From Planctomycetota bacterium (GTDB taxonomy: Bacteria; Planctomycetota; Brocadiia; Brocadiales; Bathyanammoxibiaceae), in NCBI GenBank assembly GCA_023261505.1, contig JAHFOV010000004.1, positions 1-63,752 on the forward strand: 63,752 nt of DNA, read 5' to 3'. A model generated the notes under the pieces. That model saw nothing but the letters and a program-made list of their open reading frames with translations. It was not told the DNA's origin and made no database searches. Position 1 is the first letter of the stretch. Each line of letters starts with the position of its first letter. Positions 15,402-23,528 of the stretch are shown piece after piece. A program made the position numbers and the translations under genes.

Positions 15402-16394
<993 letters not shown>

Positions 16395-16448: not shown

Positions 16449-17639
16449 TCAATGCCCTCCTCCATGCACACCGTGTCCACCGCCATGCGTACCGCCACCT
16501 CCATGGTCGCCATGCATCCCCCCCATACCAGCAGAACCCACCGGTTCTTTTAGCCCCTGGGGTATAAAGCGGTATACCCATACATGGGCCTCATCGCTCC
16601 TAAAAACTGGCAGAAAGTAGCTGAGTCCCTGCCCCTGTCCTGTACTTAACGGAAGGAGCTTGAGTATAAGCGCCTCCTTCTTCTCGGGGTTTCCATAATC
16701 CTCAAGATACCAGAGGGTGTAATGCTTTGGAAATATCTGGGCATAGTAGGAAGTAATTCCACTATTCTTTATCCACTGGTTTATGAGTGACATATCACCA
16801 GCAACACCGACTACTGACATAGGCCTGATATTTTTTGATTCTAGTTTCAAATCTGCCTCCGCGAGACGGCTCATAGCATTTATCACGGGGAAGTCTTCGG
16901 CACTCACCAGGATATAAACCGGCCGTTCTCCTGGAGCCAAAATGCCCAAAAGTTCCCTTGCCTCGGCATCCTTAGAGCAGAAGAACCTGGCTATGTCCTT
17001 GGTCTTTTGGCCATCCTCAAGGCCCTCCTTATCCTTAAACCACTTAATTAGGTAATCAAGGGTTGCCTTTTGGTATTTATCACTGGGTACAGAGAGACCT
17101 TTCAGAAGTTCCAGGCTAGGGCTGGAGGTCAAGATGTCCTTTCCTGTAAATAATTTTACCCTCTTTCCATGATGCCACCAGCATAAGATTAGAGAGTCTT
17201 TCTCGGTATTGTTCTTTATAAAATCGTAGGTCTTGAGCCAGGCAGGGGAGGTAAACGATACCATCTTCCCTGAGGAGACTTCTGAATAGTCTATATAGTA
17301 AATAAGGGGTTCGTATGTCTCCCCTCCAGAACGGTACCTGAGTCGATATTCTACAGCTATCAGCGAGTCTTTTGGCAGTGTAATAGTGTGTTCTTCTTTG
17401 ATAATGATGAGGTCTGTAGTTAACCTCTTTTCGTATTTTACCACCTTTTCAATAGGCTCTATTGAAGCGGGCAGTAGGAACTCTGTAAAATTCTCAGGGT
17501 CTGTTTCCTGCACCTTTATGTATTCATAAAGGCTTTGCCCCTGTGCTGCGCCTATTTCAAAGAAAAATAAAATAAAGCTCAAGCAAATGAAAAGAGGCAA
17601 AAGAAATGCACATTTCTGAGAGTATCTATTTTTTGGCAT
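16449..17639 (-). CDS. Secreted protein with an STT3/AglB/PglB C-terminal-like domain and a His/Gly-rich tail
   Basis: Signal-peptide-like N-terminus; W..TYDFIKNNTEKDSLILCWWHHG, DIARFF and YILV; tail GGMHGDHGGGGTHGGGHGVHGGGH. Confidence 0.65.
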   Translation of the reverse strand: MPKNRYSQKCAFLLPLFICLSFILFFFEIGAAQGQSLYEYIKVQETDPENFTEFLLPASIEPIEKVVKYEKRLTTDLIIIKEEHTITLPKDSLIAVEYRLRYRSGGETYEPLIYYIDYSEVSSGKMVSFTSPAWLKTYDFIKNNTEKDSLILCWWHHGKRVKLFTGKDILTSSPSLELLKGLSVPSDKYQKATLDYLIKWFKDKEGLEDGQKTKDIARFFCSKDAEARELLGILAPGERPVYILVSAEDFPVINAMSRLAEADLKLESKNIRPMSVVGVAGDMSLINQWIKNSGITSYYAQIFPKHYTLWYLEDYGNPEKKEALILKLLPLSTGQGQGLSYFLPVFRSDEAHVWVYRFIPQGLKEPVGSAGMGGMHGDHGGGGTHGGGHGVHGGGH

Positions 17640-17782: not shown

Positions 17783-17812
17783 TTGACAGGAAAACTTTAA
17801 CTAAGTTAGAAT
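17783..17812 (+). promoter_or_regulatory. sigma70-type promoter for tRNA-Pro
   Basis: TTGACA-18-TAGAAT about 80 bp upstream of the tRNA. Confidence 0.5.
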
Positions 17813-17890: not shown

Positions 17891-17969
17891 CGGGGTGTGG
17901 CGCAGCTTGGATTAGCGCGCTTGCTTGGGGTGCAAGAGGTCAGCGGTTCAAATCCGCTCACCCCGACCA
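17891..17969 (+). tRNA. tRNA-Pro(GGG)
   Basis: CGGGGTG acceptor stem, CTTGC-TTGGGGT-GCAAG anticodon arm, GGTTCAAATCC T-arm and encoded CCA. Confidence 0.96.
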
Positions 17970-18172: not shown

Positions 18173-19531
18173 TTAATCTGGTAGATTAAATTTTTTTAAC
18201 TTTTTGTAGAGGGTCTCCCTGTGGATGCCCAGCTTCCTGGCGGCCTCATTTTTGTTGCCGCCGGTCAGTTTTAGGACTCCGCTTATATGTCTGCTTTCTA
18301 CTGTCTCCAGGCGGAGGTCTTCGGAGAGGTGTTCCGTATGGCCTTCCAGTAGCCCGTGTTGGATGGACGGGGGGAGGTCCTGGGGTTTTATCACGCCTTC
18401 TTCACAGAATATCACGGCTCGCTCTACGGCATTGGCTAGTTCTCTGACGTTACCAGGCCAGGGATAAGACAATATGAGCTTCATCGCCTCGTCACTGACG
18501 TCTGGTCTTTTCCTACTCATTTCCCTTGAAAACCTTGCAAGAAAATGGTCCACGAGTAGAGGTATGTCTTCGCTCCTTTCCACAAGAGGCGGCAGATTGA
18601 GAATGACGGTATTTAGGCGGTAAAAGAGGTCGCTTCTGAAGCGTTTCTCTTGTAACATCTTGCTAAGGTTCTGATTGGTGGCAGCAATAAAACGGACATT
18701 GACCTTTATTAGCTCATTACCTCCGAGGCGTTCAAACTCCCCACTTTCCAGTACCCTGAGGAGCTTAGCCTGCATGGAGAAGGGCATATCGCCTATTTCG
18801 TCAAGGAATAGAGTACCCTCGTTAGCTACCTCAAATTTACCTTTTTTTTGTTTATCGGCTCCTGTGAAGGCACCTTTTTCATAGCCAAAGAGCTCGCTTT
18901 CAAGGAGGTTTTCTGGAAATGCAGCGCAGTTGATTTTTACGTAGGGTTTTGAACACCGACGGCTTGAGTAGTGAATAGCATCAGCTACCATTTCTTTGCC
19001 TGTACCACTGGGTCCCATAATGAGGACAGTGGAAGCAGAGAGAGCTACTTTCTTTATAGTGTCTACCACCTTTTGTATCTGCTGGGATTTGCCTATAATA
19101 TGTTCGTAACCATGTTCTAGCTGGAGCGTGTTTTGGAGGAATCTGGCCTCTTCCACACGCGCTTTCATCTGGGCTATATTCTTGAGGTTTATGAGCACTT
19201 CGTCTATATCCAAAGGTTTCTGGATGTAGTCATAGGCACCTAGTTTTATAGATCTTTTGGCTGTTTCTATTGTAGCATAGGCTGTCATAATGATTACCTC
19301 AATGTCAGGCCGTTGGACCTTGATTCGCTCCAGTAGCTCTACACCGTCCATATGTGGCATCCTTATATCCAATAGTGCAATGTCAAATCCATTCTTTTCT
19401 ATAAGACCAAGGGCTGAGGGACCGTCTTTAGCAACCGCCACCTCGTAGCCATTCCTGTTCAGAATGTCGCTCAGTGTCTTTAACAAGTTAATCTCGTCGT
19501 CAACAATGAGAACCTTAGTCTTTTCTGGCAT
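18173..19531 (-). CDS. sigma54-dependent response regulator (REC-AAA+-HTH_8; NtrC/AtoC/ZraR family)
   Basis: LIVDDE, LLDIRMP, GPSGTGKE, ESELFGYEKGAFTGA, WPGNVREL and a Fis-type HTH. Confidence 0.96.
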   Translation of the reverse strand: MPEKTKVLIVDDEINLLKTLSDILNRNGYEVAVAKDGPSALGLIEKNGFDIALLDIRMPHMDGVELLERIKVQRPDIEVIIMTAYATIETAKRSIKLGAYDYIQKPLDIDEVLINLKNIAQMKARVEEARFLQNTLQLEHGYEHIIGKSQQIQKVVDTIKKVALSASTVLIMGPSGTGKEMVADAIHYSSRRCSKPYVKINCAAFPENLLESELFGYEKGAFTGADKQKKGKFEVANEGTLFLDEIGDMPFSMQAKLLRVLESGEFERLGGNELIKVNVRFIAATNQNLSKMLQEKRFRSDLFYRLNTVILNLPPLVERSEDIPLLVDHFLARFSREMSRKRPDVSDEAMKLILSYPWPGNVRELANAVERAVIFCEEGVIKPQDLPPSIQHGLLEGHTEHLSEDLRLETVESRHISGVLKLTGGNKNEAARKLGIHRETLYKKLKKFNLPD

Positions 19532-19544
19532 TCTTGTAAGTCTT

Positions 19545-22500
19545 CTAATCTGCCTGTCTTAAGTCTTTGTCACTAATCCCGTAGTGCTGTTCAGCGGTAT
19601 CCAGAGTGGTCTGATAAGGGAGACTGATAGTAAAAGTGGTACCACAGCCAGGAGCCGAGTCTACTTTTACTGAGCCATTTGCCCTTTTAACAGCAGAATG
19701 AACGGCATAAAGTCCGAGTCCAGTACCCATTCCTGGCTCTTTAGTCGTATAAAATGGTAGAAATATCTTTTTTAGTTCCTTCTTAGGTATGCCATACCCT
19801 GTATCACCGATAACCAACTCCACAGTATCAGGAGAACCTCTTTGAGTAGTGATTTTTAGTGTACCGCCCTTTGGCATAGCATCCTTGGCGTTCAGGATAA
19901 GGTTTAGAAGTACTTGCTTCATGTCATCGGCATTTAGATAAAGCGGCGGAAGGGACTGAAGTACCTTTACTACCTGTATCTTGTTAACTTCCAATTCCTT
20001 ACCTACCAGAGAAAGGGTATCTTCTATAAGCTTATTGAGGTCACATGCCTCTAATACTCTCTTAGCCCTGTGAGAAAAGTCCAGGAGTTGGGTTATAATC
20101 CGCTGACAACGGCGAATCTCCTCCTGGATTATCTTCAGGTGATCCTTTATGTTGCCGTCTTGACCTCCTAATCCATCGCCAGGCGTACCAGAGAGGACTT
20201 CTTTTAGGTAGTATATGGAACTGCCTATAATGTTTAAGGGGTTGCGGATTTCGTGGGCCACTCCGGCGGCAAGCTGTCCTATAGCAGCCATCTTTTCTGA
20301 CTGCAGTAGCTCCATCTGCAACCTCTTAGGTTCAGTAATATCTCTAAAGGCAGCTACGAGGGCCAGTCCGCCTGAGGCGGATTTGTCCTCCTCTCTAATA
20401 AGGGAAGTAAATAAATAAACCGGAAACTCCTCTTCATTCTTCCTCTGAAAGAGCAATTCTCCTTCCCATCCTCCACGGCTAAATGTACTCTTCAATAGTT
20501 CCTTTTTCCACCCCTTTGGGCTGTTTGGCGACACTAAGAGGCTCATATCCTTGCCTAGCACCTCTGCGGTCTCATAGTGGGTAACCTTCTCAAAAGCCTT
20601 ATTGACGAAAGATATTTTGCCTTCCTTATCCGCTATAACAACACACTCGTCGATGCTTCTGATAGTATGGGCGAGGCGGAGGAGTTCTTCCTCGGCCTTT
20701 TTCCTCTCCGTTATATCTCTTACAAAGCTTCTGGCATGTATGAAGCGACCGCTCATAGCATCTCGCAGGCCAGTAGTATCCATCTCCACATACATCCACT
20801 GGCCGGGTTTGGTGAGGAAGACTGCCTCTGCACAGTCGTGTCCCGTTTCTGCCACCCTTGCGAGATGACTTCTGACATGTTTTTTATAATCCTTGGGGAC
20901 TATGTCCTCTAGCCTCAGCTTGAGCATCTCCTGGCAACTGTAGCCCAGGCGCTCAAGCTCGGTCTTGTTCACAGCCAGCAACTTTCCCTGGGCATCTAGC
21001 TGATGTATCATTTCTGGGGCATTTTCTATAAGGTCTCTATATTTTTCTTCCGAGTCACGAATCTTACAGAAGAGATTGGAGTTTTCTATGGCAATAGCCA
21101 GTTGTGGGGCCACTTGCATAAGGAGTTCTGCATGTTCCAGAGAAAAATTGTTTAACCTTTTACTGCCAAAGTTTAATGCTCCTATTACTCTCCCTTTATA
21201 CTGTAGAGGAAAATTTAGACGTGACCTGATTCCATCGGAGTAGAGGATATTATCAGTTGCAAGCTTTCCTTTAGATGTGTCGGGTACGATTATAGGTTTG
21301 CCAGTACCAACTACAATCTCAGTGGCGCTGCCCTCCCTTGGGAAGACTACTCCCTCGCATAGCTGGCTGGGCTCAGAGTTTTTTGTAAAGACTATGTATT
21401 CCAAAACACTTTTCTCCCCTAGAAGGAGGGTTATGCTGGTGCGATCAAAGTCTATTAACTTCCCCAGCTCGAGGCTAACCGCCTTGTATACCTCCTTTAA
21501 TTCAAGACTGGAGGCAAGGATTTTATTAATATTGGTAATTATATCTTTTTCTCTCTCGCGCTTTTTCTTCTCAGTAATATCTCTGATAATGCCTTCGTAG
21601 CCAATGATTTCTCCTTTGTCGTCCACTCTCAGGTCACAGGTCATCAAAGCAGTGAGCCGGGTACCTTCCTTCCTTTTTAGTTCCACCTCAAAATCTTTTA
21701 TAAAACCAGTTCCTTCCATGACACGGAGAAGGGTCTTTACATCTTCGGGATTTGTGCACAGGGTGCTTATAAATTTATGATTCAAAACCTCTTCTTTTGA
21801 AGAATATCCAAGTAGCTCTACACCAGCTTGGTTTATATCCAGGAATCTGTCTTCTGTGTCGCATATAAAGACGGCGTCCTTTGTGGCATCAAATAGGCTC
21901 CTGTAACGCTGTTCTGTGGCCTTCAAAGCCTGGGTTCTCTCCTCTACCATTCTTTCAAGGGTGGATGTATAGCGCTGAAGCTCAGCCTCCATGGCCTTCT
22001 GACGGGTAACGTCTCTGGAAATGGCGACAAAGCCTATGGGCCTTCCACCAGAGGTGGATTCGCTTCTCCTCAAAGTAAGCGTGAGACGTGAAGAAAAGAA
22101 GTCCCCCGTCTTACGCCTCCCCTGAAGGTCTATTTCATACCTGCCAGTCTTTTCTGTAATGGAAAGAGCCTTATCTAGCTTCCCATTCTCCTCTAAGAAG
22201 AGGGAGTGAATGAAGTACTTTCCCACTACTTCTTCCGGTTCATAGCCATACACTTTTCTTGCACCCTCATTGAAGGTCTGTATCTTTCCCTGGGGGTCTA
22301 AGGCAATGATGGAATACTCTGTGGAGCTCAAGAGGATGCTGTTAAGGAAATTGGTTGTTTCCTCTAGTCTCTTGGTCTTATCTCCTATAGCCGCCATCAT
22401 ATGGTTAAAAGAATTGCCTAGCTGTCCGATCTCATCAACCGCATCAATTTCTGCCCTCTGGGTAAGGTCTCCCTGGGCCATCTTCCTGGTGAGTTCTGTG

Positions 22501-23528
22501 AGGCGCAGGATTGGCCTTGATATTTTCTTTCCCAAGTAAAATGCTACTAAGACAATAGACACGCTCAAACTAAAGAGGATCCCGTTCACCGTTGTCTTCA
22601 GTTCATAAGCTACCCCCAGCGCCTCGTCTTTCCCCACCTCAGCGAGTATCCCTAGCCTAAACTCAGGTATCCATTGCCAGAAACCAAAGACTTCTATACC
22701 GGAGTAGCTACGGTAGCCCGTGACATTAAACCCATTTTGGCCTTTGAGGCAATCTTTCACAGCCAAAGTAGGTTGGCCATTTTGTGGGTCAGTAATTATA
22801 CTCCCAATACTTATACTCCCCTTAGGCCTATGTTTCAGCTCTGTAAGGGTAACCCCCTTGCTGTCTATCACGTAGGTCTCGCCACTTGTCCCAAGGTTAA
22901 CACTCTTCATCAAGCTGTTTATTCCCATTAACTCCGTTTGTAATATTAGAACACCTAAAACCTTGTTACCTGAGGTAATAGGGCTGGAAAAGAACATGCA
23001 TGGGATTTCATCTTTCTCATATCTCCACTCTAACTCACCCTGGGCGAGGTCTGTATCTTGCTTGTATTCTTGAGCCCTGGAGAAAATCTTGGAGATAAAG
23101 AACTGCCCGCTCAGGGCCCTTTGAAACGCTTCGGCCTCAAATATGTTGGTACCACAAAGGTATTCTGAGGTGGAGACCCTTACTTGGCCCTTTGCATCAC
23201 TAATTAGAACTTCCTTGTACCCATAAGATTCTTTGATAATATTCAGGAGGGCTGATAAAAGGAGGAACTCCTTTTCACTGGGGGTTAACTGTGTTCCCTG
23301 TATCACCAGAGGGTTTTGGGCAACAACCACGGCGTCCCTTACCCTTTCTCTCATCCAGATGGTGACAATCTCTGCCTGCTTTTTCCCCACGTTTTCCAGG
23401 TTCTTGATGACCTCTGTCCTAAGAGCCTTAAGCGCATGGGGATAGGCCAAAAACCTAAGGACTAGCAATGGCATAAAGGCGAGGAGGAGAAAAAGGACTA
23501 TAAGTCTTGTTTTTACTGATTTAAACAT
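19545..23528 (-). CDS. Multi-sensor histidine kinase (TM-Cache-TM-HAMP-PAS-PAS-GAF-PAS-PAS-HisKA-HATPase)
   Basis: H-box AHEIRNPL, N-box NLILNAKDA, DTGYGI, GTGLGL; repeated RDIT PAS ends. Confidence 0.93.
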   Translation of the reverse strand: MFKSVKTRLIVLFLLLAFMPLLVLRFLAYPHALKALRTEVIKNLENVGKKQAEIVTIWMRERVRDAVVVAQNPLVIQGTQLTPSEKEFLLLSALLNIIKESYGYKEVLISDAKGQVRVSTSEYLCGTNIFEAEAFQRALSGQFFISKIFSRAQEYKQDTDLAQGELEWRYEKDEIPCMFFSSPITSGNKVLGVLILQTELMGINSLMKSVNLGTSGETYVIDSKGVTLTELKHRPKGSISIGSIITDPQNGQPTLAVKDCLKGQNGFNVTGYRSYSGIEVFGFWQWIPEFRLGILAEVGKDEALGVAYELKTTVNGILFSLSVSIVLVAFYLGKKISRPILRLTELTRKMAQGDLTQRAEIDAVDEIGQLGNSFNHMMAAIGDKTKRLEETTNFLNSILLSSTEYSIIALDPQGKIQTFNEGARKVYGYEPEEVVGKYFIHSLFLEENGKLDKALSITEKTGRYEIDLQGRRKTGDFFSSRLTLTLRRSESTSGGRPIGFVAISRDVTRQKAMEAELQRYTSTLERMVEERTQALKATEQRYRSLFDATKDAVFICDTEDRFLDINQAGVELLGYSSKEEVLNHKFISTLCTNPEDVKTLLRVMEGTGFIKDFEVELKRKEGTRLTALMTCDLRVDDKGEIIGYEGIIRDITEKKKREREKDIITNINKILASSLELKEVYKAVSLELGKLIDFDRTSITLLLGEKSVLEYIVFTKNSEPSQLCEGVVFPREGSATEIVVGTGKPIIVPDTSKGKLATDNILYSDGIRSRLNFPLQYKGRVIGALNFGSKRLNNFSLEHAELLMQVAPQLAIAIENSNLFCKIRDSEEKYRDLIENAPEMIHQLDAQGKLLAVNKTELERLGYSCQEMLKLRLEDIVPKDYKKHVRSHLARVAETGHDCAEAVFLTKPGQWMYVEMDTTGLRDAMSGRFIHARSFVRDITERKKAEEELLRLAHTIRSIDECVVIADKEGKISFVNKAFEKVTHYETAEVLGKDMSLLVSPNSPKGWKKELLKSTFSRGGWEGELLFQRKNEEEFPVYLFTSLIREEDKSASGGLALVAAFRDITEPKRLQMELLQSEKMAAIGQLAAGVAHEIRNPLNIIGSSIYYLKEVLSGTPGDGLGGQDGNIKDHLKIIQEEIRRCQRIITQLLDFSHRAKRVLEACDLNKLIEDTLSLVGKELEVNKIQVVKVLQSLPPLYLNADDMKQVLLNLILNAKDAMPKGGTLKITTQRGSPDTVELVIGDTGYGIPKKELKKIFLPFYTTKEPGMGTGLGLYAVHSAVKRANGSVKVDSAPGCGTTFTISLPYQTTLDTAEQHYGISDKDLRQAD

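Follow-up and report, generated by a model that had tools for sequence, protein, structure and literature searches.

Locus and architecture of the encoded protein

The window analyzed here is a stretch of 63,752 nucleotides (nt) of contig JAHFOV010000004.1 (C52), which belongs to the 2.5-Mb genome, 96% complete, of a Planctomycetota bacterium of the order Brocadiales (GenBank assembly GCA_023261505.1). This genome encodes approximately nine HAO-like octahaem proteins as well as hydrazine synthase alpha, and the organism is therefore an anammox bacterium. We investigated a gene of this window that is located between the genes for a sigma-54-dependent response regulator and for MoaA (Table 1). 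It encodes an exported protein that belongs to the HaoB superfamily (PF27869) and whose core is homologous to the C-terminal globular domain of STT3, PglB, and AglB, the catalytic subunits of oligosaccharyltransferases (OSTs).

Table 1. Features of the locus, with positions in the window and, for protein segments, the evidence used to delimit them (AF2, AlphaFold2)
Feature	Positions	Strand	Evidence or remark
HaoB-superfamily exported protein with OST C-terminal-domain-like core, whole gene	16449..17639	-	396 codons plus stop, ATG start
Residues 1-35, basic n-region and single hydrophobic helix, ending in GAAQG/QS (putative signal peptide or anchor)	17535..17639	-	Hydropathy scan; AF2 helix 13-33; conserved mature start QSLYEY in homologues
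Residues 36-131, all-beta domain, highly conserved (PIEKVVKYEKRL, VEYRLRYR)	17247..17534	-	Alignment, AF2, hhalign
Residues 132-366, alpha/beta core corresponding to the central-core unit of the STT3/PglB/AglB C-terminal globular domain	16542..17246	-	phmmer, BLASTP, Foldseek, family profile
WWHHG, residues 154-158, aligned on OST WWDYG	17166..17180	-	BLASTP, motif comparison
DIARFFCS, residues 215-222, aligned on D-V-A-[KT]-x-F-T-S of related OSTs (DK-motif position)	16974..16997	-	BLASTP, motif comparison
Residues 367-396, disordered His/Gly tail	16452..16541	-	pLDDT below 50; alignment
moaA (GTP 3',8-cyclase)	15402..16394	-	54 nt downstream, same strand
tRNA-Pro(GGG)	17891-17969	+	Between the sigma-54 regulator and the HaoB-like gene
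Sigma-54-dependent response regulator	18173..19531	-	Upstream, same strand; tRNA-Pro (+) between
Histidine kinase, multi-PAS/GAF, 1327 residues, paired with the regulator	19545..23528	-	Gene context

An alternative gene call, P0002, uses an internal TTG start and gives a protein of 377 amino acids (aa). The ATG start is more plausible because the upstream stretch supplies a proper basic n-region. A Kyte-Doolittle scan revealed a sole hydrophobic segment at approximately residues 9 to 34, which is preceded by Lys/Arg and followed by GAAQG/QS, and the sequence of residues 1 to 35 is consistent with either a Sec signal peptide or a signal anchor. This N-terminal segment being the only hydrophobic one, the protein lacks a polytopic membrane domain and is exported or anchored through one helix, which agrees with the initial annotation of this locus, made from the DNA sequence, in that a multispan catalytic half is missing. 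The strings quoted in that annotation are all present, namely, W134-x2-TYDFIKNNTEKDSLILC directly before WWHHG, DIARFFCS, YILV (residues 242 to 245), and the C-terminal string GGMHGDHGGGGTHGGGHGVHGGGH.

The AF2 model, which was based on a 43-sequence family alignment, had a predicted local distance difference test score (pLDDT) of 88.8 and a predicted template modeling score (pTM) of 0.84. It consists of a helix (residues 13 to 33), the beta domain (38 to 128), the alpha/beta core (132 to 358), and the disordered tail (370 to 396). Conservation is highest in the N-terminal beta domain, as illustrated by the motifs PIEKVVKYEKRL and VEYRLRYR in the alignment of the clade. This domain is also found in P0017, a stand-alone protein with a WWDYG motif, and aligns with the N terminus of nitrifier HaoB; when modeled alone (pLDDT of 83.9), it had no relative in the Protein Data Bank (PDB), where the best E value was 0.6. 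The core contains an extra helix of about 24 residues (187 to 205) relative to the OST domain. The segment D215-I-A-R218 of the core aligns with D-V-A-[KT] of related OSTs, a correspondence drawn from sequence alignment only. The final 30 residues of the protein comprise 6 His and 15 Gly.

Relationship to oligosaccharyltransferases and to HaoB

To place the protein, 1.84 billion representative sequences were searched with phmmer, which returned 58 matches. Among these were proteins of 640 to 780 aa that matched solely at their extreme C termini (best E value of 5e-18), and these are true STT3-family enzymes according to Pfam, with PF02516 and PF21436 (STT3/PglB core). A BLASTP comparison with the full-length STT3-family protein P0022 resulted in an E value of 4e-25 and 29% identity over 251 columns, and paired WWHHG with WWDYG, DIARFFCS with DVATMFTS, and LLPLSTGQGQGLSYF with LLPFNTGYGQGLKHF. 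When the profile of the 43-sequence family was compared with the PDB, 20 sequences were retrieved at an E value of ≤1, all of them OST catalytic subunits, with human STT3A as the best match (6e-12). A single-sequence search of the PDB produced nothing real, and a local Pfam scan gave a weak match to DUF6798 and nothing else. The structural comparison of the AF2 model with AglB and PglB that the initial annotation had proposed pointed in the same direction: the top 18 Foldseek matches in the PDB were all STT3, PglB, or AglB (probability of 1.00), and the template modeling score normalized to the target was 0.53 for the isolated PglB C-terminal domain (3AAG) and 0.47 for AfAglB-S2 (3VU0), with a range of 0.45 to 0.53 over the isolated domains. 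The core is thus homologous to the C-terminal domain of STT3/PglB/AglB, far beyond chance, and the initial identification of a stand-alone exported homologue of this domain was correct. The two points on which that reading had been made to depend were the fold and the WWxxG segment; the core matches the OST fold, and the WWxxG segment is conserved.

The protein and the OST domains, such as those of C. jejuni PglB, A. fulgidus AglB, and yeast and human STT3, share, in the same order, the segments W..IK.NT..D.LI..WW..G and D.A..F.S and the terminal LLP...G.GL..F..V. In contrast to the OSTs, the window protein is encoded by a separate gene and has no 13-transmembrane-helix catalytic domain, in the place of which stands the N-terminal beta domain. 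PF02516, which corresponds to the membrane half of STT3, has no match in the window protein. As the membrane domain with all catalytic residues is absent, the protein is no glycosyltransferase on its own. Furthermore, the Asp of the WWD triad is replaced. In OSTs, the Asp of WWDYG forms a hydrogen bond with the hydroxyl group of the +2 Ser/Thr of the sequon, N-x-S/T.

A similar architecture was observed in stand-alone WWDYG proteins of 250 to 360 aa (P0017, P0020, P0021, and P0027), which have a single anchor and the OST C-terminal domain alone. P0017, encoded on an unassigned metagenome contig, shares the beta domain with the window protein as well, with 33% identity over residues 11 to 358; its WWDYG is canonical. 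PF27869 is present in P0017 and P0020. These stand-alone proteins differ from the window protein in their canonical WWDYG, in the lack of a His/Gly tail, in the organisms that encode them, and in their gene neighbors. The gene for P0020 (L035:1-3310, on a metagenome contig) is flanked by genes for a divergent PMT_2-type GT-C protein, a CopD/cytochrome-b5-like membrane protein, and a GT2 protein, so that P0020 is possibly a domain that acts with a non-STT3 GT-C enzyme.

In NCBIfam, the sole match of the window protein was TIGR04392, "hydroxylamine oxidation protein HaoB" (E value of 1e-23, 84.5 bits, model positions 113 to 319). The equivalog cutoff of this model is 200 bits, and nitrifier representatives scored between 210 and 232 bits. 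For PF27869 (HaoB_nitrify), precomputed matches exist for P0002, which is 100% identical to the window protein, and for all 13 homologue clusters. This family also covers the C terminus of the full-length STT3 protein P0022, and the relationship between HaoB and OSTs is therefore implicit in Pfam. An hhalign comparison of the anammox clade, as we term the window protein and its close homologues, with 19 nitrifier-type HaoBs gave a probability of 99.9% and an E value of 1.6e-35 over 271 columns that included part of the N-terminal region. Moreover, a profile of nitrifier HaoB alone retrieved STT3 chains only from the PDB (E values from 7e-4 to 5e-3), to which it was connected via the segment W..A..aI..hT..dAL..sWWD. 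Taken together, these data show that the window protein is a member of the HaoB superfamily (PF27869).

HaoB (orf2) has been listed since 2005 as an unknown HAO-associated protein; it is associated with [HaoA]3 and coexpressed with haoA (PMC3772326), and it is treated likewise in PMC12636513. A literature search found no paper connecting HaoB with OSTs. The HaoBs of nitrifiers and methanotrophs are built like the window protein, with an anchor or signal at the N terminus, followed by an N-terminal region and then by an OST-like core, and both keep the C-terminal signature LLP[FL]...VYxS...Y. They differ in the WW motif, which is CWW[HSPT]H in the window clade and [WYF]WD[ND] in HaoB, and in the helix D-x-A-[RK]-x-F-C-S, which is kept in the window clade and lost in HaoB; the His/Gly tail and the linkage to moaA are features of the window clade. 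According to its TIGR04392 score, its position in a separate clade, and the lack of an adjacent HAO gene, the window protein is not an equivalog or orthologue of HaoB.

The anammox clade and its gene neighborhood

The homologues of the clade originate from Candidatus Tripitaka californicus and from metagenome-assembled genomes assigned to Brocadiales or Brocadiaceae. Their distribution was analyzed in 132 genomes of the class, of which 14 are in the family of the window genome and 118 in ten other families. An intact open reading frame (ORF) was found in 12 of the 14 family genomes, namely, the window genome and 11 of its 13 relatives, and the two family genomes without the gene are only 72 to 77% complete. 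The other ten families, including two large ones with 47 and 28 genomes, yielded no copy of the gene in any of their 118 genomes. The clade is thus restricted to a single, deep-branching family of anammox bacteria, to which Ca. Tripitaka belongs. Within the clade, identities ranged from 46 to 79%, and 87 columns were invariant; the gene is under purifying selection. In one genome (G012; 84% complete, 5% contamination), two copies were observed (L026 and L033), one from each subclade, with 74% and 51% identity to the window protein, which are either true paralogues or the product of a mixed bin.

In an unrooted maximum-likelihood tree of 45 domains (LG+C20), the anammox clade was recovered with a support of 100/99. 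It falls outside the nitrifier HaoB clade (94/83), in the part of the tree that contains the full-length OSTs together with the stand-alone WWDYG proteins (84/91). This is also reflected in the motifs. In OSTs and their stand-alone relatives, the WW motif reads [ST]WWDYG, the helix at the DK position D[VIL]A[KTR]xF[TC]S, and the C-terminal segment LLPFNTGxGQGL. The corresponding motifs of the anammox clade are CWW[HSPT]H[GAS], D[IVLM]A[RMLIK][FM]FCS, and LLPLSTG[HQ]GQ. In nitrifier HaoB, the WW motif is [WYF]WD[ND][AGSC], the leading Asp of the helix is lost, and the C-terminal segment is LLPFT.S. As judged from these sequences, the anammox clade appears to retain more of the OST pocket helix than HaoB, yet without the Asp that is kept by OSTs and most HaoBs.

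The conservation of WWHHG, for which the initial annotation had suggested a survey of homologues, holds in part. W154, W155, and H157 are invariant in the clade, as are C153, C221, and H352, whereas residue 156, at the position of the OST Asp, is His, Ser, Pro, or Thr. The mature protein contains no Cys other than C153 and C221. A WWHHG in place of WWDYG was also observed in P0072 (L036:6001-8331, on a metagenome contig), a full-length STT3-family protein of 776 aa with two GT2 genes and genes for a pyruvyl transferase and a cupredoxin/SlaA-like surface protein as neighbors, and an OST that seems complete may thus carry WWHH.

The tail varied largely in length, from 24 to about 80 residues in the group with 69 to 79% identity to a short end, ...RHFGGH, in the group with about 50% identity. 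No tandem repeats were found in the tail at the DNA level. Such a His/Gly stretch is present in two of the 6679 open frames of at least 80 aa in the genome. The other His-rich frame (G000:C1:23105-23662, plus strand, 186 aa) ends in (GH/EH) repeats and, by eye, resembles a cytoplasmic hemerythrin/HHE-like protein.

In the gene order of the clade, which is fixed, the HaoB-like gene precedes moaA and often follows a histidine kinase-sigma-54 response regulator pair. moaA is directly downstream in all 11 loci that reach far enough, with gaps of 54 to 77 nt where gene calls exist, and in the interval between the gene and moaA, we found no sigma-70 promoter and no terminator-like site on the minus strand. 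The moaA of the window contains a single in-frame TAG (16152-16154, codon 81); in three homologues, this codon specifies Ser or Thr. The gene, which is the only full moaA copy of the genome, is otherwise intact (Radical_SAM and Mob_synth_C), and the TAG may reflect an error of sequencing or assembly, a nonsense mutation of recent origin, or a site of read-through. Immediately upstream, the window and every locus of the ~50%-identity clade have the gene for the sigma-54 regulator. It is preceded by the PAS/GAF kinase gene in the window and at two of three loci that were studied in detail. In the window, the tRNA-Pro gene separates the regulator from the HaoB-like gene, which therefore needs its own promoter; the only strong promoter-like site, on the plus strand (17783-17812), which matches the sigma-70 type in 11 of 12 positions, is just upstream of the tRNA-Pro gene and serves that gene.

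In three genomes of the ~50%-identity clade, the regulator pair is preceded by a gene for a cytoplasmic-type molybdopterin oxidoreductase. A specific association with this enzyme was rejected because it is also found in two families without the gene, where it is unlinked. At L042 (G008:C11:158000-177000), there is no large histidine kinase, and the order is molybdopterin oxidoreductase, sigma-54 regulator, HaoB-like gene, and moaA. There was no HAO gene in the 63.7-kb window, since all PF13447 matches of the genome are on other contigs, and no HAO or multihaem gene was adjacent to the homologue in the 16 loci examined. As a control, the gene for the nitrifier-type HaoB P0032, which scores above the TIGR04392 cutoff, is 25 nt downstream of a Multi-haem_cyto (HaoA) gene.

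Functional interpretation

We favor, with moderate confidence, the interpretation that the anammox-family protein is a noncatalytic exported binding module that was derived from an OST and forms part of the HaoB superfamily. It would act outside the cytoplasm, either in the periplasm or in the anammoxosome. The module retains both Trp as well as the D-x-A-[RK] helix, which in OSTs form the walls of the Ser/Thr pocket. The Asp that binds the +2 Ser/Thr is lost, and Cys and His have become fixed on either side of WW, along with another Cys in the helix that would face it. Docking with a changed specificity would be expected from the combination of retained pocket walls, a lost Asp, and fixed Cys and His: rather than the N-x-S/T sequon, the module may recognize an extended segment of a partner protein, or else a small ligand or a metal. 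The gene is probably cotranscribed with moaA. The tail, in the close clade only, probably adds low-affinity binding of divalent metals.

Several points weigh against this interpretation. Binding of a peptide by this domain alone is an assumption, and the isolated OST C-terminal domain forms only half of the peptide site, as seen in PglB structures. The variability of position 156 would fit either a relaxed constraint on the pocket or a remodeled pocket. The linkage to moaA could be inherited synteny without functional meaning, and this doubt is reinforced because the moaA of the window carries a stop codon. Finally, a scan of 11 loci for sigma-54 promoters (GG-N10-GC) revealed none that is conserved; there was one good match, at L028, with 10 of 11 positions, and the window sequence TTGGGCAC...TGCT is mis-spaced.

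The alternative that survives best, which we nevertheless judge unlikely, is that of an exported metal-binding protein, such as a metallochaperone, a buffer, or a sensor accessory, with a Cys/His site made of C153, H157, C221, and perhaps H352, and a tail that captures Ni, Cu, Zn, or Co. The initial annotation had already taken the His residues as a hint of metal binding. These four residues are invariant in the clade, and neither C153 nor H157 occurs in the OSTs and nitrifier HaoBs that were compared, save for three WWHH-type outliers; C221 recurs in a few relatives, and the comparison of H352 is one within the clade. In addition, the mature protein has just two Cys, the genome has hardly any other stretch like the His/Gly tail, and the gene is linked to a cofactor biosynthesis gene and, in one subclade, to the gene for a molybdopterin oxidoreductase. 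However, the long tail is missing in half of the clade, the first His of WWHHG is not conserved, and a disulfide is equally likely for the two Cys of an exported protein. Families that lack the gene also have the molybdenum oxidoreductase. Since molybdate is not bound by His, the moaA link does not point to the obvious metal. A more far-reaching version, which is doubtful, has the Ser/Thr pocket rebuilt as a metal site of C153, H157, C221, and possibly H352 that is fed by the tail; the protein would then be an OST-derived metallochaperone or sensor that operates with the sigma-54 system and a cofactor gene, and the HaoB superfamily as a whole would consist of OST-derived readers of exported proteins.

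We attribute a similarly low probability to a true HaoB function, in which the protein would be the accessory of one of the approximately nine HAO-like octahaem enzymes and would be encoded apart from its partner. This is consistent with the homology to nitrifier HaoB across nearly the whole mature length, with the many HAO paralogues of the genome, and with the coexpression of nitrifier HaoB with haoA and its association with [HaoA]3 (PMC3772326). On the other hand, the score of 84.5 bits is far from the 200 bits of TIGR04392, the clade is apart from nitrifier HaoB, and the WWD Asp of most nitrifier HaoBs examined is lost. Neither the window nor any adjoining gene of the 16 loci provides an HAO gene, whereas the control HaoB is encoded 25 nt from a multihaem gene. 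The distribution argues in the same direction, with no copy of the gene in the ten remaining families (118 genomes), the two large ones included. All published anammox families carry HAO-like enzymes, and the gene, found in one family, would therefore not be generally needed for them.

We consider it improbable that the protein is a trans-acting subunit of a split GT-C glycosyltransferase, paired, for example, with a PMT_2-type GT-C protein and involved in the glycosylation of exported proteins. In OSTs, the domain works together with the membrane domain, the stand-alone WWDYG protein P0020 is encoded between PMT_2 GT-C and GT2 genes, and there are two PMT_2 GT-C genes in the window genome. 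Nonetheless, half of a split OST, one of the two options of the initial annotation, was rejected as the leading reading: the search with PF02516 detected no STT3-type membrane half in the genome or in its 13 family relatives and returned PMT_2-type GT-C proteins only. Those of the window genome scored 24.6 and 16.7 bits, and nothing in the relatives exceeded 24.8 bits, where the proteins are of the PMT_2 type with C termini of their own. The two PMT_2 proteins are, moreover, full-length (536 to 545 aa) and unlinked to the gene, glycosylation genes are absent from the conserved neighborhood, and the Asp for sequon recognition is lost.

A functionless relic of an OST gene, which would account for the missing catalytic half and key Asp and for the interrupted moaA next to it in the window genome, is already very unlikely, given an ORF that is intact in 12 genomes at 46 to 79% identity with 87 invariant columns and a very conserved N-terminal domain, a confident AF2 model, and an architecture common to a large superfamily.

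Nitrifier HaoB, many stand-alone WWDYG proteins, and the anammox clade all descend from the acceptor-peptide-binding domain of OSTs. The present analysis adds that they form one superfamily, which PF27869 already covers, and in which the anammox clade has its own motif and genomic context. The WWD triad is still present in most nitrifier HaoBs examined, and the "function unknown" of HaoB becomes a testable idea, namely, that of a noncatalytic reader of an exposed segment containing Ser/Thr. The anammox clade represents a natural variant in which the triad is broken and Cys/His are found instead, and in which the gene is linked to moaA and a sigma-54 regulator rather than to HAO.

Two homologues of the anammox clade, P0006 and P0009, carry the JGI label "hydroxylamine oxidation protein HaoB." These labels are overannotations, because the window protein and P0016 both fall below the TIGR04392 cutoff, and could mislead metabolic reconstruction; HaoB labels that pipelines assign to anammox genes should not count as evidence of hydroxylamine metabolism.

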